Shown here: piece after piece, positions 2,830 through 23,619 of the stretch
Layout of the letters: each line of letters opens with the position of its first letter
How positions within the stretch are numbered: the stretch's first letter is position 1
Assembly (NCBI RefSeq): GCF_900289195.1
Contig: NZ_OMOH01000002.1
Span: 61,206 to 93,205 of the forward strand
From: Propionibacterium ruminifibrarum
GTDB taxonomy: Bacteria; Actinomycetota; Actinomycetes; Propionibacteriales; Propionibacteriaceae
Length of the DNA stretch: 32,000 bases
Reading direction: 5' to 3'
Notes under the pieces: generated by a model
Told to the model about the DNA's origin: nothing
The model's database searches: none
What the model saw: only the letters and a program-made list of their open reading frames with translations
Program-made: the position numbers and the translations under genes

Positions 2830-2839
2830 GGAACGAACG

Positions 2840-3739: not shown

Positions 3740-3786
3740 CAGTCTGGGCCCGACGGCACATCACTGTTCCGTGCTACACCGGATGC

Positions 3787-4137
3787 ATGGAAATCGCCAT
3801 CAAGCGCGTGTACGAACGCCCTGACGCCGGTGACGGCTATCGGGTGCTCGTCGACCGGCTGTGGCCGCGTGGCGTGTCGAGGGCCCGGGCCGAACTCGAC
3901 GAGTGGTGCAAGGACGTCGCCCCCAGCAGCGAGCTGCGGACCTGGTTCGGGCACCGGCCGGAACTCTTCGAGGAGTTCGGGCAGCGCTACACCACCGAGC
4001 TGGAGTCCTCGAGTGCCCCGCAGGCCCTGATCGAGCGCGCCGCCGGCGCAGACCGGCTCACGCTCGTCTACGCGGCGAAGGACCCCCAGGTCAACCATGC
4101 GCTCGTCCTCGCGGACTATCTGCGACGGTTGACCTGA
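3787..4137 (+). CDS. DUF488 family protein
   Basis: 116 aa. The pattern IKRVYERP..DGYRVLVDRLWPRG......DEWCKDVAPSSELRTWFGH.PE.F.EF matches my memory of the DUF488 (YeaO-like) consensus. Confidence 0.75.
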   Translation: MEIAIKRVYERPDAGDGYRVLVDRLWPRGVSRARAELDEWCKDVAPSSELRTWFGHRPELFEEFGQRYTTELESSSAPQALIERAAGADRLTLVYAAKDPQVNHALVLADYLRRLT

Positions 4138-4160
4138 GGGTCCTGCGGCGTGCTCTGCGG

Positions 4161-6115
<1,955 letters not shown>

Positions 6116-6144
6116 CGCGGGCCCCGTCCGTCCTGAGGGGTTTG

Positions 6145-7647: not shown

Positions 7648-7752
7648 ACCGCGGCCGGGCACCATCTGGTCAACGCGAGCGGATGCGGCGGCCGGCCAGG
7701 AGTCGACGGGGTCGAGTCACCCGCTCGGGTTCGCGGACCACCGGACGAGGTT

Positions 7753-7782
7753 GAGGGGCCGGCCCAGGTGGGCCGGCCCCTC
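7753..7782. terminator. GC-rich stem-loop between convergent genes (probable bidirectional terminator)
   Basis: Perfect 13-bp stem GAGGGGCCGGCCC / GGGCCGGCCCCTC with a 4-nt loop AGGT. On the plus strand it is followed by ACCGATTTCGTCG. It lies between the amidohydrolase stop (7647) and the small minus-strand ORF stop (7837). Confidence 0.6.
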
Positions 7783-7836
7783 ACCGATTTCGTCGTGTCC
7801 ACGGTCAGGCGGTCCGGCCGCCCCCGGAACGGGTCC

Positions 7837-8034
7837 TCAGACGTCTTCGCCGTCGCCCGTGCCGGGGCGTCCGAGATAGGCCAGGGCCCCGACGACACCG
7901 CCGACGAGAACGGTGCAGACCAGCAGCTTGCGCAGGCAACGGCCGAGGAATGAACCCTTCTTGGCCTGCTTCTTCGCAGCCTTGGCGGCCTTCTTCTCGG
8001 CCTTCTTGGCAGCGCGCTTCTTACAGATCGCCAT
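7837..8034 (-). CDS. Small (65 aa) Lys/Ala-rich, C-terminally membrane-anchored protein, function unknown
   Basis: A strong SD, AGGAGG, lies 4 nt upstream of the ATG (minus sense GCACTAGGAGGCGATATG). The sequence is MAICKKRAAKKAEKKAAKAAKKQAKK, then one hydrophobic segment LLVCTVLVGGVVGALAYLG, then the acidic tail GTGDGEDV. Confidence 0.6.
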   Translation of the reverse strand: MAICKKRAAKKAEKKAAKAAKKQAKKGSFLGRCLRKLLVCTVLVGGVVGALAYLGRPGTGDGEDV

Positions 8035-8077
8035 GATCGCCTCCTAGTGCATTGTGCTTTTCCATCGTCTCATGACC

Positions 8078-8110
8078 GGCCCGTGTCCCGCTGACTGGCC
8101 CGTTGTCCCG
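8078..8110. repeat. Direct repeat GGCCCGT(T)GTCCCG x2 upstream of the small ORF
   Basis: ggcccgtgtcccg at 8078-8090 and ggcccgttgtcccg at 8097-8110, with a 19-nt period, 44-76 nt upstream of the 8034 start. Possibly a regulator binding site. Confidence 0.3.
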
Positions 8111-8137
8111 CCCGATTGGGGCGTCGAGGAATCGGGA

Positions 8138-8743
8138 TCAGCGCTCGTTGGCGTCCCTCATGAAGTCGGTGACACGGTAGCGGATCCCCTGGTCTATGCC
8201 CGACAGCAGGGCATCCTCACCCGGAACGCGAACCGCCGTCAGGGCGCCTTGTTCGCTGGAGGCGATCTGCTCGTCGGCGATCGTGTACCTGCGGCGCAGT
8301 ACCCCGTCGAGCGTCCAGGTGATGGTCGTGGGCTCCGTCCAGGCGAAAACCGCCTCGTGCTGCTCGCCGGTGATCTCGTCGATCATCGTGCACTCGATCG
8401 GGGCGTGCTCGGGCTTGTCTGCCAGGTAGTGCGCAATGCCGTACTCGGCCCAGACGGGCACGCAGGGGCTGGGCATGTCGGTGGTGCGTTGCAGGTCGTG
8501 GAGCCTGTCGTCGATCCGGGTCAGGGCGTGCGTCCAGGTGAAGGGGTTGGCGTTCTTGCACTCGATGCGTGAACTCACCTCGACGAGCTTCCCGTCGGCG
8601 GGCATCACCGCGAACGTCAGGATGTTCGTGGCGCCGAGGTCGTGCACGACCGCGCCCACTGTCGCCCCCTGCGCATTGGTGAGACGCTCGAAGATCCGCC
8701 GGACACCGAATGCGGTACGGCGGTCGCCTCCAGAAAGTGCCAT
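8138..8743 (-). CDS. Hypothetical protein (201 aa) immediately downstream of era
   Basis: ATG 8743 is preceded by GAGGA, which abuts the era stop codon (minus sense TGAGAGGACCGTCATG). The gap to era is 10 nt. I recognise no motif. Confidence 0.7.
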   Translation of the reverse strand: MALSGGDRRTAFGVRRIFERLTNAQGATVGAVVHDLGATNILTFAVMPADGKLVEVSSRIECKNANPFTWTHALTRIDDRLHDLQRTTDMPSPCVPVWAEYGIAHYLADKPEHAPIECTMIDEITGEQHEAVFAWTEPTTITWTLDGVLRRRYTIADEQIASSEQGALTAVRVPGEDALLSGIDQGIRYRVTDFMRDANER

Positions 8744-8753
8744 GACGGTCCTC

Positions 8754-9698
8754 TCAGAATCCCAGTCGGTTCAGCTGTTTCGCGTCGCGCTGCCAGTCCT
8801 TGACCACCTTGACCCTGAGGTCAAGGTGCACGGGAGTGCCGAGCAGCGAGGAGATCTGGCGGCGCGCGCGGGTGCCGATGCGTTTGATGCGTTCACCACC
8901 CCTGCCCACCATGATGCCCTTCTGCGAGTCGCGTTCGACGATGAGGCTGGCGTAGATGTCGAGCAGCGGGTGACGCTCGTCGCGGCCATCGCGCAGGCCC
9001 ATCTCGTCGATCGACACCGTGATCGAGTGCGGCAATTCGTCGCGAACCTCCTCGAGCGCTGCTTCGCGGATGAGTTCGGCGGCCAGGGTCTCGTCCGGCT
9101 CATCGGTGATCTCGCCGTCGGGGTAGAACGGCGGGCCCGGTTCCATGAGGTCGAACAGCACGTCGGCGACCTCGTTGACCTGGTCGCCGTTGAGCGCCGA
9201 GCAGGGCACGATCTGCTCGAAGGAGACACCGACCTCGGCCTGCAGGGCGTCGATGCGACTCAGGTGCTGCGCGAGTCGCTCGGGTCTCACCAGATCGGTC
9301 TTGGTGGCGATGGCCATGATCCTGGGGCCGTTGCGCAGACCGGCCAGTTGCCTGGCCAGGAAGACGTCGCCGGGGCCGATGCGTTCATTGCTGGGCAGCA
9401 CCAGGGCGACGACGTCGACCTCGGACCAGGTGTCGCGGACGAGGTCGTTGAGACGGGTCTGCAGCAGCGAGCGGGGTTTGCTGACGCCGGGCGTGTCGAT
9501 GATGACCAGCTGACCGTCGGGGCGGTGGACGATGCCGCGCACCGTGTGACGAGTGGTCTGCGGCTTCGAGCTGGTGATGGCGACCTTGCTCCCGACGAGG
9601 GCATTCGTCAGTGTCGACTTGCCGGCGTTGGGGCGGCCCACGAAGCACACGAAGCCACTGCGGAAGTCCTCGGGGATGCTCATGATCTCACTGCTCAT
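8754..9698 (-). CDS. era: GTPase Era
   Basis: G1 motif GRPNAGKSTL, DTPG, TKTD, and a C-terminal KH domain. The ORF-track start 10013 was trimmed to ATG 9698 ([12 protein letters not shown]...), which is preceded by AGGAGC. It overlaps the upstream gene by 11 nt. ATG 9683 is an alternative. Confidence 0.93.
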   Translation of the reverse strand: MSSEIMSIPEDFRSGFVCFVGRPNAGKSTLTNALVGSKVAITSSKPQTTRHTVRGIVHRPDGQLVIIDTPGVSKPRSLLQTRLNDLVRDTWSEVDVVALVLPSNERIGPGDVFLARQLAGLRNGPRIMAIATKTDLVRPERLAQHLSRIDALQAEVGVSFEQIVPCSALNGDQVNEVADVLFDLMEPGPPFYPDGEITDEPDETLAAELIREAALEEVRDELPHSITVSIDEMGLRDGRDERHPLLDIYASLIVERDSQKGIMVGRGGERIKRIGTRARRQISSLLGTPVHLDLRVKVVKDWQRDAKQLNRLGF

Positions 9699-11007
9699 CG
9701 GTGGGCTCCTGTTCGTCGCCGGCCGGTTCAGGCAGCGACGAGACGACGATGGTGTCGATCTGGTGACGTCGGCCGGTGGCTCGTTCCGCGGTGAACTCCA
9801 AACCCTGCCACTGCACGTGCGCCCCCGGGATCGGGACACGGTTGAGGAGCTTGGCCATGAGGCCGCCCGCCGTGTCGACGTCCTCGTCCGCGAGGTCGAG
9901 GCCGAACAGGTCGCCGACCTCGCCGAGGGACATGCGGGCCGAGACGCGCCAGCGGTCGGGTTCGATCCGCTCGGCCAGGTCGGGTTCGGCGTCGTACTCG
10001 TCGGTGATCTCACCGACGATCTCCTCGACGAGGTCCTCGATGGTGGCCAGACCGGCCGAGCCGCCGAACTCGTCGACGACGACGACCATGTGATTGCGGC
10101 TGGCCTGCATCTCGGTGAGCAGTTCGTCGACCGGCTTGGAGTCGGGGCAGAAGGCCACCGGGCGCATGTGCTGGTCGACCGTCTCGGCGCGCTCGGCGTC
10201 CGGGTCGTCGAAGATGCGTTGGGTGATGTCCTTGATGTACATGACGCCGCGGACGTCGTCGAGGTTCTCCCCGATGACGGGGATCCGGCTGAACCCCGAC
10301 CGCAGGGCCAGGCTCATGCCCTGGCGCAGCGTCTTGCCGGACTCGATGAAGACCACGTCGGTGCGGGGCACCATGACCTCGCGGACGAGGGTGTCCCCCA
10401 GCTCGAAGACGGAGTGGATCATCTCGCGTTCGCCGTGTTCGATCGCATCGGCCTGCTCGGCGATGTCGACGAGCTGGCGCAGTTCCTCCTCGGAGGCGAA
10501 GGGCCCGTCGGCGTAACCGCGGCCGGGGGTCACGGCGTTGCCGACGAGGATGAGTGCGCTGGTCAGCCAGCCGAACAGTGCGGTGCACAGGCGCAGCGGA
10601 CCGGAGGCGCGGACGGCGACGGTCTCGGCCCGCTGCCGGCCGAGGGTGCGGGGCATGACGCCCCAGAGGATGAAGGCGATGACGGTGAGGACGAGCACGG
10701 GGACGGCGAACCGCACCCAGGTACCGTCCAGGTGCTCGAAGAGCACCCAGAAGACGACGCAGGCGGTGACCATCTCGCACGCGGTACGCAGGAGCATCGC
10801 CGTGTTGATGGCCGGCGCGGGGTCCGCCTCGATCTCGGCGACACGCGCGGCGCCGCGCACGCCGTCATCGACCATGTGCTGGGCACGGGAGGGGGTGATC
10901 ACCTGCAGCGCGGTCTCCCCGGCGGCGAGCAGACTGGCGAGAATCGTTGCGACGAGCGCGACGGCCAGCGCGATCCATTGGCCGCTGGTCACCTGGCCGC
11001 CCGCCAC
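9688..11007 (-). CDS. CNNM/hemolysin-family membrane protein (DUF21 + CBS pair + CorC_HlyC)
   Basis: N-terminal TM region, then [12 protein letters not shown] and [26 protein letters not shown], which are typical of TlyC/CorC-like proteins. The start is ATG 11007, or GTG 10992 forming a GTGA overlap with the ybeY stop. Confidence 0.88.
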
Positions 11008-11434
11008 CCGGCGATGATCCGGTCGTTGAGACCGAACATGACGGCCTTCTCCTCGGGTTCGGCGTGGTCGTGGCCGAGCAGGTGGAGCAGCCCGTGAATG
11101 AGCAGGTACTCCATCTCCTCCTGGTTGGTGCGGCCATTGCCCGGGGCCTGGGCACCGGTGAAGGCCGGGCAGATGACGATGTCACCGAGCAGGCCCTGCG
11201 GCGGCTCCTCGTCGGCGGCGGGCGCACGCAGTTCATCCATGGGGAAGCTCATGACGTCGGTCGGACCCTCCAGGTCCATGAACCGCTTGTGGTAGACGGC
11301 CATGGTGTCCTCGTCGACCAGCAGGATCGACAGGTCCGACTGGGGGTGAATGCGCAGCTCCTGGAGGGCGTAGCGCGCCAGACGGACGAGCGCCTGGGTG
11401 TCCACCTGTTCACCGGATTCGTTGTTGATGTCGA

Positions 11435-11438
<4 letters not shown>
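10989..11438 (-). CDS. ybeY: rRNA maturation endoribonuclease YbeY
   Basis: Zinc motif [11 protein letters not shown]. There is an ATGA overlap with the phoH stop (11435-11438). Confidence 0.93.
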
Positions 11439-12460
<1,022 letters not shown>

Positions 12461-12556
12461 GCTGCTCAGAACAAGGCCTTTCGCGGGATCGTTTCGTCTT
12501 CGACCGATGGTGTTGACTCCGATCCTACGCGCACGCCCCAGAACCCCTCCACGACT

Positions 12557-12595
12557 GGCACGCCCACGCCCGGACCGGTCCGGCGTGGGCGTGCC
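12557..12595 (-). terminator. Long GC-rich hairpin downstream of the MFS gene
   Basis: ggcacgcccacgcccggacc / ggtccggcgtgggcgtgcc forms a stem of about 19 bp with one bulge, 13 nt after the MFS stop. There is no clear U tract. Confidence 0.5.
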
Positions 12596-12607
12596 GATGA
12601 TCGGGTC

Positions 12608-14029
12608 CTAGACCCTCACTGCCTCGACGGCCGGGGCCTCGTGGGCGCTCATGGTGTCCAGGTCGATGCCCTTGGTCTCCTTCATGGTGACCAGGGAGGC
12701 GAGCGTGCACAGAGCCATGGCGATCAGGTAGAGGCCGACCGATCCGGGGCCGAAACGGCTGGCGAGCCAGGCCGCGATGAAGGGGGCCACCGAGGCGCCG
12801 AGGATCGAGGCCACGTTGTAGCTGATGGCCGAGCCCGTGTAGCGCACGTTGGTCGGGAACAGTTCGGGCAGCAGAGCCGACTGGATCCCGAAGGTCAGCC
12901 CCATGAGGGCCATGCCGATGAGCATGAAGACAGTCATGCGCACCAGGTTGGCGTCCGTGCCGGTGCCGATCTTGTCGGGGGCGAGGAAGAAGCCGAAGCT
13001 CGCGCCGAAGACCACGATGGCGCAGGTCACGATGGTCAGGAAGCGTTTGCGGCCCCACCGGTCGCCGAGGATGCCCGAGACGGGAATGGTGAGGGCGAAG
13101 GCGCAGATCGTGATGAGCTGGACGATCAGGAAGTCGTGGTAGGGGATGCCCAGGAAGCCGGAGCTGACCTTCCCAATCGAGTAGGACAGGATCCAGGTCG
13201 TCATGAGGTAGAAGAGCGTGTAGGTGGCGACCATGAGGAAGGTGCCGCGGACCAGGGGGCCCCACGATGTCCTGAAGACCTCGATGACCGGCGCCTTCAC
13301 CACATCCCCCTGCTTCTGCGCCTTCTTGAAGCTCGGGGTCTCGTCCAGCTTGAAGCGCACCCACAGGCCGAGGACGACGATGACCGCGGAGAACAGGAAG
13401 GGCAGACGCCAGCCCCACGTCAGGAAGGTGTGGTTGGTGGTGGCCGTGGTCGAGTCGTAGGCCATCACCGCGGTGAGGAGGAGGAAGAATCCGTTGGCCA
13501 TGAGGAAGCCGATCGGGGCGCCCAGCTGGGGCCACATCGAGTCGAAGCCGCGTTTGCCAGGGCGGGAGTTCTCACCGGCCAGCAGCGAGGCGCCGGACCA
13601 TTCGCCGCCCAGGCCCAGGCCCTGGCAGAAACGCATCAGGGCGAGGAAGGCCGGCGCGGCGATGCCGACGGCCTCGTAGGTGGGCAGCAGGCCGATGATC
13701 ACGGTGGCGACGCCCATGGTGAGCAGTGAGGCGACAAGGGTGGCCTTGCGGCCGGCACGGTCGCCGAAGTGCCCGAAGAGCACGGACCCGATGGGCCGGG
13801 CGACGAACGCGACGCCGAAGGTGGCCAGTGAGGCCAGGAGCGCGCCGGTGTCGGTCGCGGTCGTGAAGAACAGCAACGGGAAGACCGAGATGGCGGCCGT
13901 CGCGTACGCGTAGAAGTCGTAGAACTCGATGGTCGTCCCGACCAGCGAGGAGACGATGATGCGCCACTTCGGGTTGGCGGCGCTGGTGCCGCCGGTGGCG
14001 GTTCGAGTGATATCGGATGAAGTTGTCAC
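12608..14029 (-). CDS. MFS transporter, metabolite:H+ symporter (MHS) type
   Basis: 473 aa and multi-TM. It has the N-terminal TIEFYDFYAYA and the GHFGDRAGRK loop typical of ProP/KgtP/ShiA-like transporters. Confidence 0.88.
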   Translation of the reverse strand: MTTSSDITRTATGGTSAANPKWRIIVSSLVGTTIEFYDFYAYATAAISVFPLLFFTTATDTGALLASLATFGVAFVARPIGSVLFGHFGDRAGRKATLVASLLTMGVATVIIGLLPTYEAVGIAAPAFLALMRFCQGLGLGGEWSGASLLAGENSRPGKRGFDSMWPQLGAPIGFLMANGFFLLLTAVMAYDSTTATTNHTFLTWGWRLPFLFSAVIVVLGLWVRFKLDETPSFKKAQKQGDVVKAPVIEVFRTSWGPLVRGTFLMVATYTLFYLMTTWILSYSIGKVSSGFLGIPYHDFLIVQLITICAFALTIPVSGILGDRWGRKRFLTIVTCAIVVFGASFGFFLAPDKIGTGTDANLVRMTVFMLIGMALMGLTFGIQSALLPELFPTNVRYTGSAISYNVASILGASVAPFIAAWLASRFGPGSVGLYLIAMALCTLASLVTMKETKGIDLDTMSAHEAPAVEAVRV

Positions 14030-14177
14030 GCAGTCAGGCTAGGTTTTTCTCATGAAGCAAGACAGTCGTCTTTGGATTTGAGACGCCATGGTGCGCGAGG
14101 CTTGGAGCAGCCGGTCGCGGCCCATCTGCCGCGCGGCACTGCCGCTCCGGCCGGGACACCGGCCTCGGGTCCCGGTG

Positions 14178-14669
14178 TCAGCCGGGGGCCTGGCCCGCGG
14201 TGCCCGCGGGTTCGTTGTCCTCGTCGCCGTGGCGGGCGAGGTCCTCCTCGTTGATGATGTGCATCGCGGCCTCCTCGGCGCTCGCCGCGCCCCCGGAGAT
14301 GCCCACGTCTGAGGCGACGGCCTGGGACTCGGTGTCGGCGCTCATGGCGTCGCCGGGTGCCACGAGGCGTCCGGCTCGCGTCGACCCGACCTGGCGCTGC
14401 TCGCCGTTGGGGTTCCAGTCCGGCTCCGGGTCACTGCTCGGTTCTGGCTCCTCCTGCGTCACGCGCTGGTCGATGGTCTCGCCCTGGGCCATCTCGGCGG
14501 GCGTGTTGCCGAAGCGCTGGGCCGCCGACCAGTGGTCGGGGGCGACGAAGCCCTCGTCCAGGGGATCGGCGACACCGCGGTCGATGAGCGAATCCGCCTG
14601 GGAGAGCTGGGCCAGGTCGCTGTTCTCCACGCCCTCATCGAGGGGCAGATCCTCGTTGATCTCACTCAT
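14178..14669 (-). CDS. Acidic conserved actinobacterial protein (DUF5709-like, family name from memory)
   Basis: 163 aa, very Asp/Glu-rich (MSEINEDLPLDEGVENSDLAQL...), with AGGA upstream. The family assignment is not verifiable here. Confidence 0.6.
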   Translation of the reverse strand: MSEINEDLPLDEGVENSDLAQLSQADSLIDRGVADPLDEGFVAPDHWSAAQRFGNTPAEMAQGETIDQRVTQEEPEPSSDPEPDWNPNGEQRQVGSTRAGRLVAPGDAMSADTESQAVASDVGISGGAASAEEAAMHIINEEDLARHGDEDNEPAGTAGQAPG

Positions 14670-14768
14670 GTCTCGATCCTGCCATGACTGGGGCGCCCAT
14701 GGGAGGATTGCGCGGCGGAACCAGGGGGATCTGTTCTGGGCGCCGGACCGATGGGGGCCCGGGGCGGT

Positions 14769-16016
14769 TCACCTCGTGCTCGCGGCGGAGCGATAGCGTC
14801 CCAGCCACTCGGCGCGGAAGTCCTCGAAGCTGCCGTCCTCCATGGACCGGCGGATCTGGTCGACGAGACGAACGGTGAAGCGTTCGTTGTGGATCGTGGC
14901 GAGCACCTTGCCGTCGATCTCGCGGGCCTTGAACAGGTGGTGCAGGTAGGCGCGTGTGCAATGCGTGCAGGTGTAGCAGTCACAGCCTTCCTCCAGGGGG
15001 ACGAAGGCACGGCGGTTGGCGGCCGTGGTGACGTTGTAGCGGCCGTCGGCCGTGTAGATCGCCGCGTTCCTGGCCACTCGGCTCGGGTTGACGCAGTCGA
15101 AGGTGTCGGCCCCCGCGGCGCAGGCCGCGAACAGGTCCTCCGGCTCGCTGATGCCGAGCAGGTGCCGGGGCCGGTCCTCGGGCAGTTCGTCGGCGCACCA
15201 GCCGACGATCTCCCCCAGCCTGGCCTTCTCGATGGCGCCGCCGATGCCGTAGCCGTCGAAGGGGCGGTCCCCGTCGGCCGAGCGCATCGCCGACAGGTCG
15301 CGGCAGGCCCTGCGGCGCAGGTCCTCGTACTGGGCCCCCTGGATGACGCCGAAGAGAGCCTGGTAGGGCCGGTGCCGGCGCGAGCCGGTCAGGCGCACGT
15401 GCTCGTCGAGGCAGCGCTGGGCCCAGCGCCGGGTGCGTTCGAGGGCCTCGACCTGGTACTCCCGGGTGTTGAACAGTGTCGTCAGCTCGTCGAAGGCGAA
15501 CATGATGTCGGCACCCAGGCCGTGCTGGACCCGCATGCTCACCTCGGGTGTGAAACGGTGCCTCGAGCCGTCCAGGGGGCTCTTGAAGTTCACGCCGTCC
15601 TCGTCGACGTGGGCCTGCCGTTCGTGGCCCTCGGCGATGACGTCATCGTTCTGCAGCCCGGTGACGTCCATGGCGAGGGTCTTCTTGAACCCCGAGCCGA
15701 GGCTCATCACCTGGAAGCCGCCCGAGTCGGTGAAGGTGGGCCCGGTCCAGCCCATGAAGGAGCCGAGACCGCCTGCCTCGTCGACGATGTCCGCACCCGG
15801 CTGGAGATACAGGTGGAAGGCGTTGGCGAGCACGGCCTGACCGCCGACCGCGGCGACCTGGTCGGGCAGCATGGCCTTGACGGCGGCCTTCGTGCCGACG
15901 ACGACGAACGCCGGGGTCCTGATCGTCCCGTGGGGCGTGGTGATCACGCCCGTCCTGCCCCGCCCGTTGGGCAGTCTCGTGCGCACGGTGAACCCGAAGT
16001 CATCGGAAAAGGCCAT
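14769..16016 (-). CDS. tgt: tRNA-guanine transglycosylase (queuine tRNA-ribosyltransferase)
   Basis: TPAFVVVGT, TDSGGFQV, AFDE and a zinc site CDCYTC...H are present. The ORF-track start 16331 was trimmed to ATG 16016 (MAFSDDFGFTV...). The product is 415 aa. Confidence 0.92.
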   Translation of the reverse strand: MAFSDDFGFTVRTRLPNGRGRTGVITTPHGTIRTPAFVVVGTKAAVKAMLPDQVAAVGGQAVLANAFHLYLQPGADIVDEAGGLGSFMGWTGPTFTDSGGFQVMSLGSGFKKTLAMDVTGLQNDDVIAEGHERQAHVDEDGVNFKSPLDGSRHRFTPEVSMRVQHGLGADIMFAFDELTTLFNTREYQVEALERTRRWAQRCLDEHVRLTGSRRHRPYQALFGVIQGAQYEDLRRRACRDLSAMRSADGDRPFDGYGIGGAIEKARLGEIVGWCADELPEDRPRHLLGISEPEDLFAACAAGADTFDCVNPSRVARNAAIYTADGRYNVTTAANRRAFVPLEEGCDCYTCTHCTRAYLHHLFKAREIDGKVLATIHNERFTVRLVDQIRRSMEDGSFEDFRAEWLGRYRSAASTR

Positions 16017-16217
16017 GGGGACGATTGTGGCAGGGGCCGGCGCCCCCAGTGCGGTCCTCAGCCTTGGGATGGAACACCAACACCGGCTCTCCACCCGGCG
16101 CAGGATCAAAGAACTGGGGCGTTCCTCGCACGGAGGGAGAGAAATGGTGGCGAAACTCCCCGTCTCGCACGATGTTTGTCGAGTCATTTGAAACGTAATC
16201 TTTCTCGACGTGAACGC

Positions 16218-16230
16218 AGAACCCGGTTCT
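16218..16230. promoter_or_regulatory. 13-bp perfect palindrome AGAACC-C-GGTTCT in the tgt/lipoprotein divergent region
   Basis: It lies 70 nt upstream of the lipoprotein ATG 16301, next to an AT-rich stretch (16170-16210). It is an operator candidate only. Confidence 0.3.
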
Positions 16231-16300
16231 CGTCCACCAGCCAATGCACTGCCGTCGTCCCTCTGCGGACGCCGCGAACTCTGAAAGGGAGCCTGCCCGC

Positions 16301-17833
16301 ATGATGAGAACGTCCACCCCAGCACCTTCACTCACGCGCCGTTCCGTCTTGGCGGCCATGATGGGCACGGCTCTTCTGTCCCCGCTGGTCGCTTGCACCC
16401 GCGGCGGAGGTGACGGCACGAGCGGCGCCCAGAATCCCGGAGACGGCTCTGCGGGCGGTTTGCAGGATCAGCTCGGCGGGCTGGGCGGGAACGCACCCTC
16501 GCTGTCGCCCGAGGAGTACGAGGCCATTGTCGACGGTCTTGCCGAATGGGTGTCCCGCGTCTGGCCTCTCATGGGTTCGGTGTGGCCTGACGCCGACTAC
16601 AACCAGCACCGGATCGTCGCCATGCAGGTGGGTGATGATTTCAAGGCGACGCGGGCCTGGGTGGTCTCCACCGACGGGCACCGAGAGCTCAGGAACGACG
16701 AATACGCCGACATCACCCCGCCCTCCTCCTATGACAAGATCACCTTCGAGGGCTATCCGTCCATCACCTTGAACCTCGGCTCGGCCGTCACCCTCAGCAA
16801 GGGGCAGGGGCAGGATGAGCAGAATGCCTCGTCCGGCACGTCCCCCGCCTCGGCCGGGGCAGCCGGCGATGCGGCCGACCTGACCGACCCGGCCACCTTC
16901 GCCTTCGCCCTCATGACCCATGAGCTGGTGCACTTCTACTACCAGGGCGAGATCAACGTGACCGCCGAGAGCAGCCGCGACACCCCGTACCCGTTCGAGG
17001 TGCGCCCGCGCACCCTGCGCCGGATGCTGCTGCACAGCCTCTACCTGGCGGCGACCGAGCAGAACAAGCAGCAGGATCACCTGGGGCATGCCCGCTACTG
17101 GCTCGACACCTGGAAGAAGGAGGCCGAGCAGGAGGCGCAGGACATCCACCACTACGACATCGCCGAGGGCGTGGCGCGGTACGTCGAGTACATGGCGTTG
17201 TCGATCGAGTCCGACCAGTCCGCCGAGCAGCTGCGCAGTCGCCAGGCGCCTCTGCTCAAGGAGGGCCTGACCGTCGACCTGTCGGTGGACGCCGAGTCCT
17301 ACGCCCTGGGTTTCACCACCGGTGTCCTGCTCGACTCCCGCAAGCCGGGCTGGAAGGACGGCTTCTACGCCGGCGGCACGACCTTGACCGAACTGCTCCT
17401 GGAGGACGTGGCTCCCATTCCCGAAGACGTCGACGAGCAGGTGCAGGCGGAGGTCGACAAGCAGGCCGCGGAGTCCGAGGAGAACACGGGGCCGCAGATC
17501 AAGAAGATCGACTCCGCCGAGGCCGACACCGGCACCGCCTACCTGCGCTTCCTCACATTCGGCGAGATCGCCTACGCCGGCTCGTTCGCGTACAAGGACA
17601 AGGTGGTACTCACCACCACCATCCTGAACGTGAACAACGAGGGTCAGAGTCTTCAAATCTTCGGCACCCCGAGCTTCACCGGCACCGACCGCGAGATCCT
17701 CAACGTCCCGCTGATCGACGCGACCCACCGCTACGACAACGGGGTGCTGACGGTCACCGGCGACGCCATCAACGGGACCGTCAAGGCCGAACGCACCACC
17801 GAGAACGGAAGGGAGGTCTTCATCGTCGAGTAA
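16301..17833 (+). CDS. Tat-signal lipoprotein with an HExxH...EGxAxY motif (putative MA-clan zinc metallopeptidase)
   Basis: ATG 16301 follows GAAAGGGAG. The N-terminus MMRTSTPAPSLTRRSVLAAMMGTALLSPLVAC carries a twin-arginine motif and a lipobox Cys. It also has MTHELVHFYY, and IAEGVARYVEY about 95 aa downstream. Confidence 0.75.
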   Translation: MMRTSTPAPSLTRRSVLAAMMGTALLSPLVACTRGGGDGTSGAQNPGDGSAGGLQDQLGGLGGNAPSLSPEEYEAIVDGLAEWVSRVWPLMGSVWPDADYNQHRIVAMQVGDDFKATRAWVVSTDGHRELRNDEYADITPPSSYDKITFEGYPSITLNLGSAVTLSKGQGQDEQNASSGTSPASAGAAGDAADLTDPATFAFALMTHELVHFYYQGEINVTAESSRDTPYPFEVRPRTLRRMLLHSLYLAATEQNKQQDHLGHARYWLDTWKKEAEQEAQDIHHYDIAEGVARYVEYMALSIESDQSAEQLRSRQAPLLKEGLTVDLSVDAESYALGFTTGVLLDSRKPGWKDGFYAGGTTLTELLLEDVAPIPEDVDEQVQAEVDKQAAESEENTGPQIKKIDSAEADTGTAYLRFLTFGEIAYAGSFAYKDKVVLTTTILNVNNEGQSLQIFGTPSFTGTDREILNVPLIDATHRYDNGVLTVTGDAINGTVKAERTTENGREVFIVE

Positions 17834-17867
17834 TCGGATGTGATGAGGTGGGCTCACACCCATGGTC

Positions 17868-17891
17868 CCGCCGATCACGAGTGGTCGGCGG
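17868..17891 (+). terminator. Hairpin downstream of the lipoprotein gene
   Basis: CCGCCGATCA-CGAG-TGGTCGGCGG forms a 10-bp stem including one G-U pair, 35 nt after the stop. There is no U tract. Confidence 0.35.
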
Positions 17892-18343
17892 GGCCATGCC
17901 GTCCTCGGGAGTGGGAGAACCCGGTTGGCCCGCCCGCGCGTCGACGCGGGCCGCGCATCGCTCCGACGCTGCCTCGTGGCGGCGAGCACTGGGGCATGTC
18001 GGCCAGGATGATGATCCCACTGCCAGTCCGGGGACCTGCACGATGGCGTTCGGCGCGTTCACTGCCTCCTTCGAACCCGGAACGATTCAGCCGGGCTGAC
18101 ATCTTCCGGGGCTCGGGGTGTCATGACTCAAGGTGCATGCTGTACGGCTACCCCGCATGCACCCCTTCACGACACGCACATCCCCTCGCCATCTCGCCGA
18201 TCCCCCGGGCTTTTTCGCCCTCAATCCCCGGGAAAGATTCACTGTGTGCATCGCATTCGGCAACGGATAATTCAGATGCAGATCCACCGTGGAAACGACC
18301 CCAGGGGCACCTGCACTGACGCTGAGCCGAGGACCAGCACGGC

Positions 18344-18853
18344 TCAGTCGCCGTGCTCCTGCTCGCGCTTGCGCCGGTAGTTCTCACAACGACGGGCATT
18401 GCGCTCCTGCCGCTTCAACTCCGCCTCATAACCCGTGCGCAGCCAGTCCGGGATGAACTCATCATCACGCGGATAGCGCTTCAACTCATTCCAGCAATCC
18501 CCAGGGCCGGGGCGTATGTCGCCGGAAGCCTGAGTGAATACAGGCTCGCGCATCCAGTCGCACTCCTGGCGCAGCACCCCGTCAGCGGCAGCCATCCACA
18601 AACGACACCACGTCCACGCACCACGATCAGGCAACGCCTGCGCAGTGCGAAGATCCCCCTGCGGGGAACCCAGCTCCCACGGGATCCTCGACCACTCTTT
18701 GACCCCGTCGCGCATGAGCCAAGCGACATTATCCTGTACGCGTCCAATGCCGTTGACCTCTATGTGAGCGCTGTCCGCACCGGTCTCGTCCAACCACACC
18801 CGAAACTCACGTTCCACGCGCTCCAGTAGTTCGTCTGGGTCTAACTGCCTCAT
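18344..18853 (-). CDS. Hypothetical Trp-rich protein (169 aa), immunity-protein-like
   Basis: GAGGAG lies 8 nt upstream of ATG 18853. The sequence is MRQLDPDELLERVEREF..., with GAWTWCRLWMAAADGVLRQECDW in the second half and a basic K/R/E-rich tail (KRQERNARRCENYRRKREQEHGD). Similarity to YezG/DUF600-type immunity proteins is only an impression. Confidence 0.65.
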   Translation of the reverse strand: MRQLDPDELLERVEREFRVWLDETGADSAHIEVNGIGRVQDNVAWLMRDGVKEWSRIPWELGSPQGDLRTAQALPDRGAWTWCRLWMAAADGVLRQECDWMREPVFTQASGDIRPGPGDCWNELKRYPRDDEFIPDWLRTGYEAELKRQERNARRCENYRRKREQEHGD

Positions 18854-18882
18854 CGCTCACGCTCCTCACTACGACTATATTG

Positions 18883-19146
18883 CTACGGATTGATGTTATT
18901 GAAGTTTCGAGACCGCCCTACGCCGTTCTCATCCACCCACTTGGCTTCGAGCTGAGTTGGTACTCGATCACTCGGGTTGACGTCACTGAGGCGGTTGACG
19001 GAGCCGGCGCTGGCTGGTGGGCCGTCGTACTCGATGCGGATGTCGATGTTCCTGTAGTTGTCAGGGTTAGCGGCGATCTGGTCCTCGAACTTCTCATAGC
19101 TATCCGAGTGGGCGTCGTTCGTTCCACGGTTGAGGTCCTTGTGCAT
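18883..19146 (-). CDS. Small ORF (87 aa from the ATG), orphan toxin C-terminal-module-like
   Basis: There is a strong G/C third-position bias in this frame despite AT-richer DNA. GAGG lies 5 nt upstream of ATG 19146. The frame is open up to 19215, adding FATQPPPQPAPTTAGPEDPNEVP directly after the TAG of the upstream gene. The sequence is N/D-rich with no recognised motif. Confidence 0.5.
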   Translation of the reverse strand: MHKDLNRGTNDAHSDSYEKFEDQIAANPDNYRNIDIRIEYDGPPASAGSVNRLSDVNPSDRVPTQLEAKWVDENGVGRSRNFNNINP

Positions 19147-19215
19147 GGGGACCTCGTTGGGGTCCTCGGGCCCAGCCGTTGTTGGTGCGGGTTGTGGCGG
19201 GGGCTGAGTGGCGAA

Positions 19216-19818
19216 CTACGCCTCCTCCTCTTCTTCCTCGAAGTAGCGGCGTTCGGCCTCGGCCGCACGGTTGGCGGCAGGCGAGTCCACGGTGGCGCTG
19301 AGGACTCGCCCGACGGCGCCGAGTTGAAGTGAGGCTCCGCTCGGCAGGGTCCACGTGGTGGACTCCTGGGGGCCGTTGCGCCCCTGGGAGTGCTTGGTGG
19401 TGCCGGCGCCGTACAAGTCAGTCAGCACTTGGACGTACTGGGTGTATGCCTGGCGCACCAGATCAGGCGCTTCCGGCGGCGTACTGGCCTTAGGAATACG
19501 CGAAGCCAATTCCATGTGAAAGGAATTTGCCTGACCTTTGAGATCTATGAAGTATGCGTCTTTTCCACCCAGATCGTGACCGGTAGTAAACATCATCTCG
19601 TCTGTTGGTGACGGCTGCCAGCCGAGACGGTCACGCAACTCCAGACCCTCCTGGACACTCATAGGCCAATCATGCTCCAACCACAGCCGGATCACCGGCA
19701 CACCCACCTCGGGCGGAACCACCCGAAAGGTAGTGCCGCCCGGAAGTCCAAGCTCGTATGAAATACCGTCATTCTCCTGCTTGTCATCACTCACACGATC
19801 ACTCCAGACCACTAACAT
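19216..19818 (-). CDS. Hypothetical protein, paralog B of a tandem pair (about 200 aa)
   Basis: It shares RVVPPEVGVPVIR.WLEHDWPM and STTWTLP..AS.Q.G..G.VLS...DSP.AN with the upstream gene and has the acidic tail EEEEEEA. The start is uncertain: ATG 19818 abuts AGGAGG, and GTG 19812 has better spacing. Confidence 0.72.
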   Translation of the reverse strand: MLVVWSDRVSDDKQENDGISYELGLPGGTTFRVVPPEVGVPVIRLWLEHDWPMSVQEGLELRDRLGWQPSPTDEMMFTTGHDLGGKDAYFIDLKGQANSFHMELASRIPKASTPPEAPDLVRQAYTQYVQVLTDLYGAGTTKHSQGRNGPQESTTWTLPSGASLQLGAVGRVLSATVDSPAANRAAEAERRYFEEEEEEA

Positions 19819-19848
19819 CCTCCTACGAGACCGGATCGCCAGGAGCAC

Positions 19849-20442
19849 CTACTCGTCCCCGTCCTCTTCTGCAGCCTCCCACTCCAGCAACTCCGCCTCA
19901 GCCGCAGCCGCATAATTCGCATCAGGAGAATCGATGTCGCAGCTCAGCACACTTCCGATCGTACCGACTTGAACTGATGCGTGATTCGGTAGTGTCCAAG
20001 TGGTCGAATCTACATAACCACTCCGGGTTTTACTTCGCGACACCTCACCTTCACCGTACAAGCCGGACAACCTGCTGGTGTAAGCAACGTATGCCGCATG
20101 CGTCAGCGGTGTGGTGTATACATCAAGCTCTATTGGCGCATACGACGCCAAGCTGATACGAAATGAGTTCACTCTATTCTTGATGATGGTGATTGACGCG
20201 TCCTTGGGCATACCCGAGCCGAGGTTGGTGGTGACCAGTGTTTCCTTCCTCGGCGAAGGCGTCCAGCCGAGTTCGTCGCGCAGCGCAAGCGCCTGCTGGG
20301 CGGTCATGGGCCAGTCGTGTTCAAGCCACTTGCGGATGACGGGTACCCCGACCTCTGGTGGGACCACCCGGTAGACGGTGCCATCGGGAAGCTCGCGCTC
20401 GTAGGTGGGGTCCGTGTGTTGGCTCCTGGTGCCGTCGGTCAT
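19849..20442 (-). CDS. Hypothetical protein, paralog A of a tandem pair (197 aa)
   Basis: ATG 20442 is preceded by AGGAG at a 6-nt spacing. It has the same conserved N- and C-terminal blocks as paralog B and the acidic tail EAAEEDGDE. Confidence 0.78.
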   Translation of the reverse strand: MTDGTRSQHTDPTYERELPDGTVYRVVPPEVGVPVIRKWLEHDWPMTAQQALALRDELGWTPSPRKETLVTTNLGSGMPKDASITIIKNRVNSFRISLASYAPIELDVYTTPLTHAAYVAYTSRLSGLYGEGEVSRSKTRSGYVDSTTWTLPNHASVQVGTIGSVLSCDIDSPDANYAAAAEAELLEWEAAEEDGDE

Positions 20443-20663
20443 CGCGTGCTCCTGGCCGGTGCCCGGTCGTTGGCCTGTTCACGTACATGGTAGGCGAGGT
20501 GTGTGACATCAATCTGCGCGCCGTGGGGAGTCGTCGTTCGCTCTACGGCGTGGGGCTGCGGACTCTGGGCGCGGATCTCACCGACTCTCATCACGTCCCT
20601 GAAGCATCGGCCGCGGACCCCAACCGTGGGTCCTGGGGAGTCAACACCGCTGCTCATCCAAGC

Positions 20664-22073
20664 ATGGTCGCTCGGCCTTCGCGCACGAGAACAGCCAGAC
20701 GGCTCGGCCCGTTCACCCCGGCATGGGACGCGGCATGCTCGCCCGCTCTGAGGTACTCTCGGCCCGTGCCGAAGCGCTTTCTGGCGACCGATCTCGAGGT
20801 CCTCACCGTCACCCCCACCAGCGCGGTGATCAGCTGGATCACGCGCCGCATACGCCACGGCCGGCTCGTCCCCGAGCCCTACCCCACCGACGCCCGGGTC
20901 TGGCTGGGCGCCGCAGGCAGCCATCTGAGGCTGGTCCACGAGAGCAGCAGGCAGACCGCCTTCCACAAGGTGACGATCACCGGCCTGGAGCCCGGGCGCG
21001 AGTACCACTTCCGCGCCATGTCGGGCGATCAGCAACCGACCCCGGGTATGGCGATCACGAATCGGCGCCACAGCCCGGAGCGCACTCACCGCTTCATGAC
21101 GCTCACCCCTCCGCCGGGACGCTACGTGGAGACGATCGTGCTGGCGAACGACTCGCACCTGGGAGAGAAACGCCAGGGCATCGTCCTCGGCCCGCTGCCC
21201 ACCTCGGTCAAACCGGGGCCGGGACAGAAGGACTACGCTCAGGCGATGTTCACGACCATGCTCGACGAACTCGCCGTGCGCCATGGGCGCCCGTTCCTGG
21301 TGCTCGGCGGCGACGTGACATCCACGGGCACGGCAGAACAGGCCGCCTGCGCACGGGCCCTGCTGGACGGTTACGGCGTCCGGCACGAGTCGTGGCTGGC
21401 CGTGCGAGGCAACCATGACAGGCCGCAGCGGGACGGCACCGATCCGTTCGCAGAGCACTTCACGGACTACCAGGCGATGTGTTCGGCCACGACCGCCTCG
21501 GGTCTTCGCATCGTCGGCCTGGACACCACGCGCGGCAGCGGCGGAGGCTGGATCACCCCCGAGCAGATGAGTGACTTCCGGGCCCTGCTCGCCGAGAACC
21601 ACGACCACCCCACCATCGTCACCGCCCACCACCCCGCGACCAACGACGCCGCCATGACCTACCCGTCGGGCCCGCAGTTCATGCTGCGGCTGCGCGACCG
21701 CATCGAGTTGCAGCATGCCGAGCGGAAGGCTCACGGGCTGTTCCTGCACCATGCCGGCCACACCCACCGCATGCGCCGCGACCGGGCCGACGTGCAGGGA
21801 GCCGGAGCCGAGTACCTCGAGGTGGCTGCCTGCTCGTCCTATCCGGCCGGCTACGCGCTGCTGCACCTGTACGAGGGCGGCTACCTGGTGAACTTCTGGC
21901 GCATCGGCGGCGACGACGCCGCCGCCTGGCAGATGCGCAGCCGCTGGCAGGCCATGGGCCTGGGCCCCCTGTTCACCGTCGGCTCCACGAACGACCGCAA
22001 CCACGTCGTCCTGAAGGACCTGTCCGGCCTGCGCCCCTCCGGCATGCCAGTGCCGCCCGAGCTACGGGTGTGA
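20664..22073 (+). CDS. Metallophosphoesterase with a purple-acid-phosphatase-like N-terminal domain
   Basis: Motifs LGGDVTSTG, VRGNHD, HHP and GHTHR are present, with an N-terminal beta-domain (LEVLTVTPTSAVISW...YHFRAMSGD). The start is uncertain: ATG 20664 is used here, GTG 20766 is plausible, and the ORF-track start 20358 is rejected. Confidence 0.8.
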   Translation: MVARPSRTRTARRLGPFTPAWDAACSPALRYSRPVPKRFLATDLEVLTVTPTSAVISWITRRIRHGRLVPEPYPTDARVWLGAAGSHLRLVHESSRQTAFHKVTITGLEPGREYHFRAMSGDQQPTPGMAITNRRHSPERTHRFMTLTPPPGRYVETIVLANDSHLGEKRQGIVLGPLPTSVKPGPGQKDYAQAMFTTMLDELAVRHGRPFLVLGGDVTSTGTAEQAACARALLDGYGVRHESWLAVRGNHDRPQRDGTDPFAEHFTDYQAMCSATTASGLRIVGLDTTRGSGGGWITPEQMSDFRALLAENHDHPTIVTAHHPATNDAAMTYPSGPQFMLRLRDRIELQHAERKAHGLFLHHAGHTHRMRRDRADVQGAGAEYLEVAACSSYPAGYALLHLYEGGYLVNFWRIGGDDAAAWQMRSRWQAMGLGPLFTVGSTNDRNHVVLKDLSGLRPSGMPVPPELRV

Positions 22074-22129
22074 GCAAACACCCGGCCCGGGCGGCACTGG
22101 ACTGATTCGTTCGCGGTACCGTCGCCGAC

Positions 22130-23434
22130 TCACTCGCCGTACACGGTGTCCTCCTGGTCCGGCACCACCTGACCGTCATCGTCGGTGAGCGGCCCGCTGC
22201 CGCCGTCGGGCAGGATCAAGCCCTCCGTGGAGCACGGGTAAGGCTCGGCCTGCTGACCCTTCGGGTCGATGAACATCGGGTTGACGATCCACTTGCCGTC
22301 GGCGTTGAAGTAGGCCTGGCACATCAGCTCGGTCTTGTTCCGGTTGATCGCCAGGCGCAGCCCGGTGGCGTCCGACATGAAGGAGACGTCTGTGTCGGAG
22401 TCGCCCGCGGCGAACGCGGCACGCGCCGGCTCATCGGCCACCTCGAAGGCGTCCGACGAGTCGATCCCGAAGACCTCCTCGTTGACCCGGCAGCGTTTGC
22501 CCTCGATGTAGGGCATCGACGCCTCGTCCCCTCCGCAGGAGGAGAGCGTGGTGGTCAGCGTCCCGCCGTCACCGGGTGAGGTGACGACGCCCATCACCTT
22601 GTCTGCTCCGAAGTCGAGAGCCTCACCCCAGACCTCGGCGACCGGCTCGGCCGAGGCAGAGATGATCCTGACGTCGAAGCCGTTGGCCCGCAGTGTCTCG
22701 ATGAGGTCGACGACCTGGTCGTAGTAGCGGACCCATCCGGTGACCTCGGTGGTGCCGACCACCTGGGTGGCGCTCTCGGCGGCGTTGAGGTTCTGCTCCC
22801 TGGCCGATGCGGCGAACTCCTTGACCTCCTCGGCGGTCCAGCCGGCCAGCAGCTGCGCGGCGAAGGCGTACTGGGGTTCGATGCGGCGTGCGTTGAACCC
22901 GGTGAAGGCCTCCTCGCCGGTCGTTGTGGTGCCCTCGGAGTAGACCGACAGGATCTCGTCGGCGCATGCCGCACCGTCCTGGGACGCGGTGTCCATGGGC
23001 TCGCCAGGCTCGGCGAGTGCGTCGCAGGTCCCGGACAGGGCGCGGGCGGCCTCGTCGGTGATCCACGGCGACACCGTGCGCCAGTCCCGGCCGGCGGGCT
23101 GACGAACCTTGCCGTTCGCGAGCATCCAGAACGTCTGGGCGTCGCCGATGTCGTTCTTGACCACGGTGTTGTCCCAGTCGAAGAGAGCCACCGGGGCGCC
23201 CTCGGCGTACTCGCCGGAACCGCCGCACTCCCCCACCTCGGCGATCAACTCGTCGATCGCGGTGAGGTTGTCGCCGAACCAGTCGAGCGAGGAGTCCATC
23301 GTCCGGCACGACTGTGTGACGGAGGACTGTTGGGTGGACGATTCCGATGCGGTCGACTGGCCGGCGGAACACGCACTGAGAGTGAGAGCGCCCAGGACGA
23401 GGGGCGCCGCCAGAACGAGACTCGACTTCTTCAT
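22130..23434 (-). CDS. Secreted HAD-superfamily phosphatase lipoprotein (HAD-IB/SerB-like)
   Basis: Signal peptide plus lipobox MKKSSLVLAAPLVLGALTLSAC, HAD motif I FDWDNTV and motif IV GDSDTDVSF. GAAGGAG lies upstream of the ATG. Confidence 0.85.
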   Translation of the reverse strand: MKKSSLVLAAPLVLGALTLSACSAGQSTASESSTQQSSVTQSCRTMDSSLDWFGDNLTAIDELIAEVGECGGSGEYAEGAPVALFDWDNTVVKNDIGDAQTFWMLANGKVRQPAGRDWRTVSPWITDEAARALSGTCDALAEPGEPMDTASQDGAACADEILSVYSEGTTTTGEEAFTGFNARRIEPQYAFAAQLLAGWTAEEVKEFAASAREQNLNAAESATQVVGTTEVTGWVRYYDQVVDLIETLRANGFDVRIISASAEPVAEVWGEALDFGADKVMGVVTSPGDGGTLTTTLSSCGGDEASMPYIEGKRCRVNEEVFGIDSSDAFEVADEPARAAFAAGDSDTDVSFMSDATGLRLAINRNKTELMCQAYFNADGKWIVNPMFIDPKGQQAEPYPCSTEGLILPDGGSGPLTDDDGQVVPDQEDTVYGE

Positions 23435-23619
23435 GGAAACTCCTTCAGGAGACGAGAGACGGTGAAGGCAAGGACACTAGCGGCACCGCTCGTCGAGGTC
23501 GCCGGTTCGGGCGCACCACCAGAAGAAAAGATCACTATCCGAAAAAAGGATCAGCGCAGGACTCCTCCGCCGGGCCTCACCGCAACGGCCAACCAGGACG
23601 TACCCGCCGGAGCGGTGGT

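Follow-up and report, generated by a model that had tools for sequence, protein, structure and literature searches.

A horizontally acquired, toxin-less fragment of an ESX-locus polymorphic-toxin array in Propionibacterium ruminifibrarum, probably an orphan-immunity island

The closest described systems to the locus reported here are EsaD/EsaG (also named EssD/EssI) of Staphylococcus aureus and YeeF/YezG of Bacillus subtilis, each a nuclease toxin of a T7SSb (type VIIb secretion system) paired with an immunity protein of DUF600 (Imm36). Residue H528 is catalytic in EsaD and the C-terminal fragment of the nuclease domain alone is inactive (PMC9616950), and orphan esaG genes occur in S. aureus strains lacking esaD (PMC9484751). 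In the catalogue of Zhang et al. 2012, Tox-NucA is a nuclease of the HNH/EndoVII fold with GH...N motifs, exported in Actinobacteria through the T7SS (type VII secretion system, WXG/LXG) and paired with an immunity protein of the BH3703 fold that has conserved Trp residues and occurs in poly-immunity loci (PMC3482391). The mycobacterial Eat locus encodes an arabinanase toxin secreted by ESX-4 together with its inhibitor EatI, and nuclease-type payloads are predicted to be widespread in Actinomycetota (PMC13444075). Acquired defence clusters of Bacteroidales counter type VI secretion effectors, according to work cited in PMC9484751. Here we describe a segment of 2,905 nt within a 32-kb stretch of the P. 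ruminifibrarum genome (the window, always meaning the whole stretch), a horizontally acquired fragment of an ESX-locus polymorphic-toxin array that has lost its toxins and whose function is most likely orphan immunity, a reading in which we have good confidence. At this locus the toxin is down to 12 codons and a nuclease down to an inactive half, and the predicted immunity genes A, B and D remain.

The edges of the segment were set by comparison with Propionibacterium australiense, where nucleotide homology stops at window position 17847 and restarts at 20753 and only ~205 nt separate the same lipoprotein and phosphoesterase genes. In P. acidifaciens and one Propionibacterium metagenome-assembled genome (MAG), tgt adjoins the phosphoesterase gene directly with no segment between. 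The segment is missing at the orthologous site in these three relatives, one genome per species being compared with the phosphoesterase as probe, and 17848-20752 is a true insertion. The preliminary description of this DNA had suggested an acquired cluster, and the presence/absence comparison that it proposed agrees, with 2.9 kb absent between the lipoprotein and phosphoesterase orthologs of P. australiense. The features of the insertion, read in the direction of its genes, are as follows.

17848..20752, minus strand: whole inserted segment, from comparison with P. australiense
20580..20752, no strand: right filler, matching neither a fetched locus nor P. australiense
20544..20579, minus strand: remnant of the upstream ESX-locus toxin gene, made up of its last 12 codons with the stop codon lost, EIRAQSPQPHAV
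19849..20442, minus strand: gene A, DUF6301 (PF19818), 197 aa
19216..19818 (or 19812), minus strand: gene B, second DUF6301 paralogue (PF19818), 198-200 aa
19172..19215, minus strand: former 3' tail of gene B, FATQPPPQPAPTT, and its junction with the nuclease vestige at 19172-19179
18883..19173, minus strand: ORF C (itself 18883-19146) with its upstream in-frame stretch, a putative vestige of an EsaD-like nuclease
18344..18853, minus strand: gene D, predicted EsaG-like immunity protein, 169 aa
18237..18293, minus strand: weak trace of one more nuclease-domain cassette (its beginning), STVDLHLNYPLPNAMHTVN compared with TTVNPDLKDPLPNATYTVD
17848..18236, no strand: left filler with a hairpin at 17861-17898, matching no fetched locus

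Over A, B, C and D the segment is 74-87% identical at the DNA level to loci of Actinomyces. Homology to four Actinomyces loci (74-85% at the nucleotide level) starts at window position 20579 each time, including those of A. succiniciruminis (L011), A. qiguomingii (L006) and A. ruminicola (L016), in which this position falls in the last 39-48 nt of genes for proteins of 977, 991 and 1106 aa, respectively. The translation of 20544-20579, EIRAQSPQP, aligns with the C-terminus of the A. succiniciruminis toxin, ...DEIRAQGQQPPTP (...MIDEIRAQGQQPPTP) followed by the stop. As homology begins within the last 12 toxin codons, the toxin gene was cut away. The gene order that survives here, judged by these alignments, is the same as in the Actinomyces loci, minus the toxins.

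Four co-directional minus-strand open reading frames (ORFs) had been described with gaps of 30 nt, 69 nt in frame and 29 nt, and this arrangement holds when gene B is started from the ATG at 19818; public gene calls place its start at the GTG at 19812. All four frames exist, but the third is a toxin-domain vestige and no gene, so that the count of four genes does not stand. The 110-aa in-frame translation of ORF C has no Pfam match even at an E-value of 10, so the PF13930 model is not reached, and it is 51% identical to residues 81-163 of an Endonuclea_NS_2 fragment of Actinomyces procaprae and 70% identical to an orphan toxin of A. succiniciruminis. An exhaustive phmmer search with ORF C returned 21 relatives, and all ten of the longer ones that were scanned carry PF13930; a profile of the nuclease domains of these relatives matches S. 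aureus EssD/EsaD (8GUO_B) at an E-value of 4e-10. The alignment of ORF C starts at PEDPNEVPM, right behind the invariant GGHLxGxxFGG motif, which is itself missing, and only the C-terminal third to half of the nuclease domain is kept, without the N-terminal fragment and without the His equivalent to the catalytic H528 of EsaD. The inactive crystallisation mutant 8GUN differs at exactly this His. The apparent ATG of ORF C is the conserved Met of the ...NVVPM motif, the sequence upstream of it is the tail of gene B, and no secretion or trafficking domain of the WXG100, LXG or PPE type was found there. Since the catalytic His is lacking and the upstream sequence is the tail of another gene, ORF C reads as a vestige of an EsaD-like (Endonuclea_NS_2/Tox-NucA) toxin domain and not as an active member. 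Public records list it as a hypothetical protein, where a toxin vestige would be the better annotation. The earlier suggestion of a remnant polymorphic-toxin locus gains support from this truncated nuclease domain and from the last 12 toxin codons at the right flank.

Gene D has 34 homologues, and all matches that carry an organism name come from Actinomyces, with several copies per genome. Genes of this type sit immediately 3' of nuclease domains in A. procaprae (L004), A. succiniciruminis (L011) and A. ruminicola (L016), and after the vestige in the window. Scans of ORFs C and D against Pfam, NCBIfam, PADLOC and PHROGs gave no matches. The AlphaFold model of gene D has a predicted local distance difference test score (pLDDT) of 84, and all six of its Foldseek matches at E-values of 1e-3 or below are EsaG (8GUO_A, 8GUP_A) or the DUF600 protein BH3703, with E-values of 5e-5 to 8e-4, a probability of 1.00 and moderate template-modelling (TM) scores of 0.34-0.46. 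Gene D is predicted to encode an EsaG-like immunity protein against EsaD-like nucleases. A further D homologue, 85% identical to that of the window, was seen on metagenome contig k141_59613 of the ENA (L014, positions 2390-3126) behind a nuclease vestige of ~45 codons; this stand-alone cassette has DUF817 and AAA-ATPase genes on its two sides and leuS in the same region, and appears from its neighbours to be another orphan D gene outside a secretion locus.

Genes A and B are paralogues, 52% identical to each other, and both belong to DUF6301 (PF19818). Gene A matches the family with an E-value of 2.8e-24 (86.2 bits) and gene B with one of 4.9e-27 (95.2 bits), both over positions 1-136 of the 137 in the model and above its gathering threshold of 27.2 bits. 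The view that no protein of the cluster could be assigned to a named family is therefore incorrect for A and B and correct for D, which fits no Pfam model. The protein of gene A is 100% identical to PROPJV5_0482 of P. ruminifibrarum, and it is 87% identical to an A. succiniciruminis protein encoded directly 3' of the 977-aa protein; a tandem pair of A-type and B-type genes is also present after the A. qiguomingii toxin. No paper mentioning DUF6301 was found in a search of the literature. Neither the N-terminal sequences nor the models of A, B and D suggest a signal peptide or membrane helix, as judged by eye.

The DUF6301 gene lies directly 3' of a protein of 925-1106 aa in all five ESX contexts that were examined, two of them from A. 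qiguomingii and one each from an Actinomyces sp., A. succiniciruminis and A. ruminicola. The large proteins are encoded at the following positions.

L006, 6307-9282
L007, 7024-9858
L011, 6964-9897
L015, 5073-7850
L016, 4577-7897

Three of these loci (L011, L015 and L016) are embedded in an ESX cluster with eccD, eccB and a YbaB-like gene, a mycosin gene is present in L015 and L016, and a small EspC/WXG100-like gene precedes the large protein in L007, L015 and L016. The N-terminus of the large protein gives weak matches to WXG100_2 (E-value 2e-4) and PPE. Gene A is predicted to be an immunity protein against the C-terminal domain of this large protein. The C-terminal ~250 aa carry the motifs YARDHL[LI]TDPR[FY]AQYF and HYRVISTRTP and match no Pfam family or PDB sequence, and nothing meaningful came back when the C-terminal 299 aa of the A. 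succiniciruminis protein were searched against PDB sequences. By its position this region is the partner of DUF6301, and it may be an undescribed toxin domain.

In A. succiniciruminis (L011) and A. ruminicola (L016) the order is large toxin, DUF6301, orphan Endonuclea_NS_2 protein and D homologue. Residues 459-663 of the main toxin recur with 98% identity at the beginning of the orphan nuclease of A. succiniciruminis, and such a shared stretch is a classic recombination handle and a hallmark of swappable polymorphic-toxin cassettes. The array of A. procaprae (L004), beside eccC, eccD and a YukD-like gene, consists of ten EsaD-like cassettes interleaved with eleven copies of D, and a D-family gene lies behind every nuclease cassette. 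Half of the ten cassettes are complete for the domain; the other five are 5'-truncated, and one of these has an internal stop. The idea that the truncated nuclease cassettes are silent cassettes for sub-domain swapping, with one recurrent breakpoint, was rejected: the window, the L004 repeats and L014 are broken at different points, and these differing breakpoints together with the internal stop in one L004 copy make the truncated cassettes read as vestiges. Within L004 itself (SPQV01000014.1, positions 1690-12300), four of the five truncated cassettes share a junction at which the D-family stop is followed in frame by VVWVVSLPLVLMPDPANGSHPGSFYELEQ..., so that a block of ~830 nt, made of the nuclease C-terminal fragment and D, was amplified in tandem; two types of the last ~20 nuclease residues alternate along it. 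The pairing of D genes with nuclease cassettes, the match of the D model to EsaG and the constant position of DUF6301 behind the large protein support the orphan-immunity cluster that had been proposed from the sequence alone.

The junction between gene B and ORF C can be placed closely. DUF6301 homology to L007 extends to ~19179 and nuclease homology to L011 begins at 19173; the ancestral stop of gene B was lost at this junction, and B now ends 13 codons short of it through a GAG-to-TAG change relative to L006 and L007. The premature TAG and the loss of the ancestral stop explain why ORF C sits 69 nt in frame behind B. In the related metagenome-derived contigs L001 and L003 gene B is frameshifted by a deletion of 1 nt (window position 19405), and it is intact in the window and in L002; the frameshift could be genuine decay or an assembly error. 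On the far side of gene D, the trace at 18237-18293 is weak, with 10/19 identities to L004 by tblastn (E-value 0.001 in a one-sequence search) and 74% DNA identity to it over 54 nt.

The drop in composition that had been noticed by eye was confirmed by sliding-window profiles. The GC content in 400-nt stretches is 0.54-0.62 from ~18.4 to 20.4 kb and 0.66-0.72 on both sides, and among 2,100-nt windows across the 32 kb the eight lowest values all start at 18001-18701. The minimum of 0.596 lies ~3.3 standard deviations below the mean of 0.676 (standard deviation 0.024), and the inserted segment as a whole has a GC content of 0.619. The GC content at third codon positions (GC3) of the four ORFs is 0.677, 0.683, 0.750 and 0.718 compared with 0.85-0.94 in 13 backbone genes. 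Homologous cassettes inside Actinomyces genomes are also low in GC3 (0.50-0.77 against 0.83-0.92), and the AT-richness is thus a property of the cassettes and not of a donor genome. The segment is horizontally acquired: it is absent in relatives, its composition is atypical and its closest relatives are found in another order, as among named organisms all other homologues come from Actinomyces, a genus of a different order from Propionibacterium. One metagenome sample (3300023712) contains both the A. succiniciruminis locus L011 and L001, a near-identical copy of the window.

Three public contigs (L001, L002 and L003) are 98% identical to window positions 8342-23554. The island is 99.7% identical among the four sequences, like the remaining region, and it was therefore acquired before these strains diverged. 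The ratio of nonsynonymous to synonymous divergence (dN/dS) against the nearest Actinomyces homologue, which includes time spent in the donor lineage, is given for each frame below.

Gene A, dN/dS 0.11
Gene D, dN/dS 0.14
Gene B, dN/dS 0.27
ORF C, dN/dS 0.33

Genes A and D are under purifying selection. We propose that the fragment came from an array of the kind found at the 3' end of ESX loci in ruminant-associated Actinomyces, and that what survived is, in order, the last 12 codons of the large toxin, DUF6301 gene A, DUF6301 gene B, an inactive part of the nuclease (C) and D. The product of gene D would act in the cytoplasm as EsaG does: on binding an EsaD-like DNase that enters the cell, it would split the nuclease domain and leave the His-Me finger disordered. 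A and B would each neutralise one variant of the C-terminal domain of the large ESX-locus toxin. Together the three predicted immunity genes probably protect the cell from the toxins of its neighbours and would shield Propionibacterium from toxins that co-resident Actinomyces would deliver into it.

As all toxic parts are gone and all immunity frames have been spared, orphan immunity is the best reading of the island, and three other explanations were weighed against it. The island could be a decaying relic without function or protective effect, its four ORFs all becoming pseudogenes. ORF C is indeed a dead vestige, gene B stops prematurely and, in two of the four related sequences, carries a frameshift, the flanks consist of unrecognisable filler with a faint trace of a further cassette, and no promoter-like site was found by a consensus scan in or around the island. 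Genes A and D, however, are intact and 99-100% identical across the four strain and metagenome sequences, their low dN/dS values (with the donor-lineage time that these include) speak for constraint, and the deletions spared every immunity frame and removed every toxic part, as expected if selection keeps immunity; we consider the relic unlikely. Still smaller is the chance that the genes form a satellite array for self-immunity, serving a type VII system and cognate toxins of the genome's own that lie elsewhere, in the manner of the additional esaG copies in toxin-positive S. aureus. Satellite arrays of this kind, placed downstream of the toxin gene or far away from it, are common (PMC9484751), and the visible scope is 32 kb of the genome, without secretion genes. 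The toxin genes are, however, visibly cut away at this locus, relatives of D and DUF6301 occur in named genomes only in Actinomyces and this one Propionibacterium species, and a word-indexed search with ORF C gave C itself and one relative at 84% and no intact nuclease from the species. That C and D are an active toxin-antitoxin or phage-defence module, with A and B as unrelated housekeeping genes, is highly improbable. Small adjacent co-directional ORFs with short gaps do superficially resemble a type II pair, but in C the entire N-terminal fragment is missing along with the catalytic His, and by homology to the C-terminal fragment of EsaD it would be inactive, none of the four ORFs has a PADLOC or PHROG match, and the absence of the island in sister species speaks against a housekeeping role. 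All three explanations are less likely than orphan immunity.

Several points nevertheless count against orphan immunity as the function of the island. Orphan status was judged on the 32-kb window and ~20 kb of related contigs, and a T7SS of its own or cognate toxins elsewhere in the genome would mean that the genes are not orphans. The likeness of gene D to EsaG is at the level of the modelled fold (TM scores of 0.43-0.46): none of 28 family members matches any Pfam model, DUF600 included, at an E-value of 10, and a search of PDB sequences with the D-family profile returned nothing at the same cut-off. For DUF6301 the evidence of an immunity role is the position of its genes; its structure model is mediocre (pLDDT 70) and gave in Foldseek only weak matches of the PsbP/Apa/DcrB type (best E-value 6e-3, TM score below 0.3). 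At least one gene may be decaying, given the premature stop of B in the window and its frameshift in two related contigs. The synonymous divergence (dS) of ~0.5-0.6 to the nearest Actinomyces homologues means that no direct donor is identified. Antibacterial activity of an actinobacterial T7SS has so far been demonstrated in mycobacteria only, and recently (PMC13444075), and the ESX system of Schaalia restricts an epibiont by a route left unidentified (PMC13622651).

The island had been described as lying in a housekeeping backbone, which the Pfam domains of its neighbours, from which we take the gene names, confirm. On the phosphoesterase side the backbone runs through lepA, a hemN-like gene, DUF3097, inositol monophosphatase, hrcA, dnaJ, an RNA methyltransferase, a haloacid dehalogenase (HAD) hydrolase and the phosphoesterase up to the island, and beyond it follow the lipoprotein, tgt, DUF5709, a major facilitator superfamily (MFS) transporter, phoH, ybeY, CNNM/CorC and an Era-type GTPase. 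The flanks without a credible ORF are real, at 17834-18343 and 20443-20765. The left filler has a GC content of 0.66, no gene is called there in public assemblies, and its hairpin (I4, 17861-17898, with 18-bp arms that are 89% complementary) comes right after the lipoprotein stop. Homology with P. australiense restarts just 13 nt ahead of the phosphoesterase start, so that the right end of the island probably supplies the promoter of that gene, and 20580-20752 probably carries divergent promoters for it and gene A. Within the island and next to it, no significant Rfam family, promoter or terminator was found. As in the preliminary description, the window contains no tRNA gene and the island no convincing flanking direct repeat, and no Pfam domain of an integrase, recombinase or transposase was present in the subset of window ORFs that was scanned.

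The neighbourhood shows further variability. The window and L002 are 98% identical, and almost all of their divergence falls within ~800 nt at 16000-16800, where each 200 nt has 39-45 differences, as opposed to 0-1 per 200 nt in 16800-18000; the tract spans the 5' end of tgt, the intergenic region between tgt and the lipoprotein gene (77% identical to L002) and the N-terminal third of the lipoprotein, and has the look of a stretch imported by recombination that has nothing to do with the island. The lipoprotein itself (16244-17833, plus strand, 529 aa) carries an HELVH motif of the HExxH type and, close to its N-terminus, a lipobox-like LVAC, with no match in Pfam, NCBIfam, PADLOC or PHROG. 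It is 82.5% identical in P. australiense compared with 95-97% for its neighbours, the gene is absent in P. acidifaciens and in the Propionibacterium MAG, and it may have been inserted at this variable spot earlier than the island. Synteny with the related contigs ends at window position 23554, just beyond the HAD gene (positions 1-5301 of L001 and L002); past this breakpoint the related strains have insertion sequence fragments (Transposase_mut in two pieces and DDE_Tnp_1) and a glycosyltransferase, and the window has the RNA methyltransferase, dnaJ and hrcA genes.

Orphan immunity islands and pairs of the EsaD/EsaG type are known kinds; what is new is the predicted immunity role of DUF6301 and of the Pfam-less D family, the actinobacterial ESX setting and the location across an order boundary. 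The island gives a testable predicted function to two families that were without one. It is a plausible though still tentative idea, to which we give somewhat less than even weight, that Propionibacterium captured these genes against ESX toxins of Actinomycetales sharing its rumen community. If so, toxins exported by the ESX systems of Actinomyces, DNases and others, would reach cells of other genera and orders; DUF6301 and the D family would represent two immunity families that had gone unrecognised, and the partner of DUF6301 an unrecognised toxin domain; and Gram-positive Actinomycetota would possess acquired interbacterial defence across taxa, as Bacteroidales do against type VI secretion. 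The locus is indirect genomic evidence that actinobacterial type VII systems serve antagonism between genera in the rumen, and a natural orphan-immunity island would be a convenient experimental handle on Actinomyces toxins.

Compared with the described systems, the island differs from EsaD/EsaG in that gene D has no detectable sequence similarity to DUF600 or EsaG, its source loci are of the actinobacterial ESX type (EccB, EccD, mycosin) and not the firmicute T7SSb, and its immunity genes stand in a different order from the toxin-bearing genomes, in a housekeeping region away from a secretion locus. It shares with EsaD/EsaG a toxin domain of the same Pfam family (PF13930) with the immunity gene immediately downstream, a predicted immunity protein whose modelled fold has EsaG and DUF600 BH3703 as its best PDB matches, and immunity genes present as multi-copy tandem arrays where the secretion locus ends, seen in Actinomyces L004 and in S. 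aureus (PMC9484751). The six invariant Trp of the D family recall Imm36, although the family escapes the current DUF600 model; DUF6301 and its partner toxin domain were not found in the searchable part of the catalogue (PMC3482391). From the Eat locus the island differs in the activity of the toxin and in that the Eat immunity protein is secreted, and no orphan immunity in a foreign genus is described with Eat (PMC13444075), but both involve small helical partner genes upstream of an actinobacterial T7SS substrate, with the immunity gene downstream of it. Acquired immunity genes that lack cognate toxins, with several specificities stacked, 5'-truncated toxin vestiges ahead of them and a dense gut or rumen community as the setting, are also features of the interbacterial-defence clusters of Bacteroidales and the orphan CdiI/Rhs cassettes of Proteobacteria. 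Some of the Bacteroidales clusters lie on mobile elements with a dedicated integrase, whereas no recombinase, tRNA or repeat was found with the island of the window. A published precedent for the island is found in the orphan esaG genes, where immunity genes have likewise been retained where the toxin is gone.

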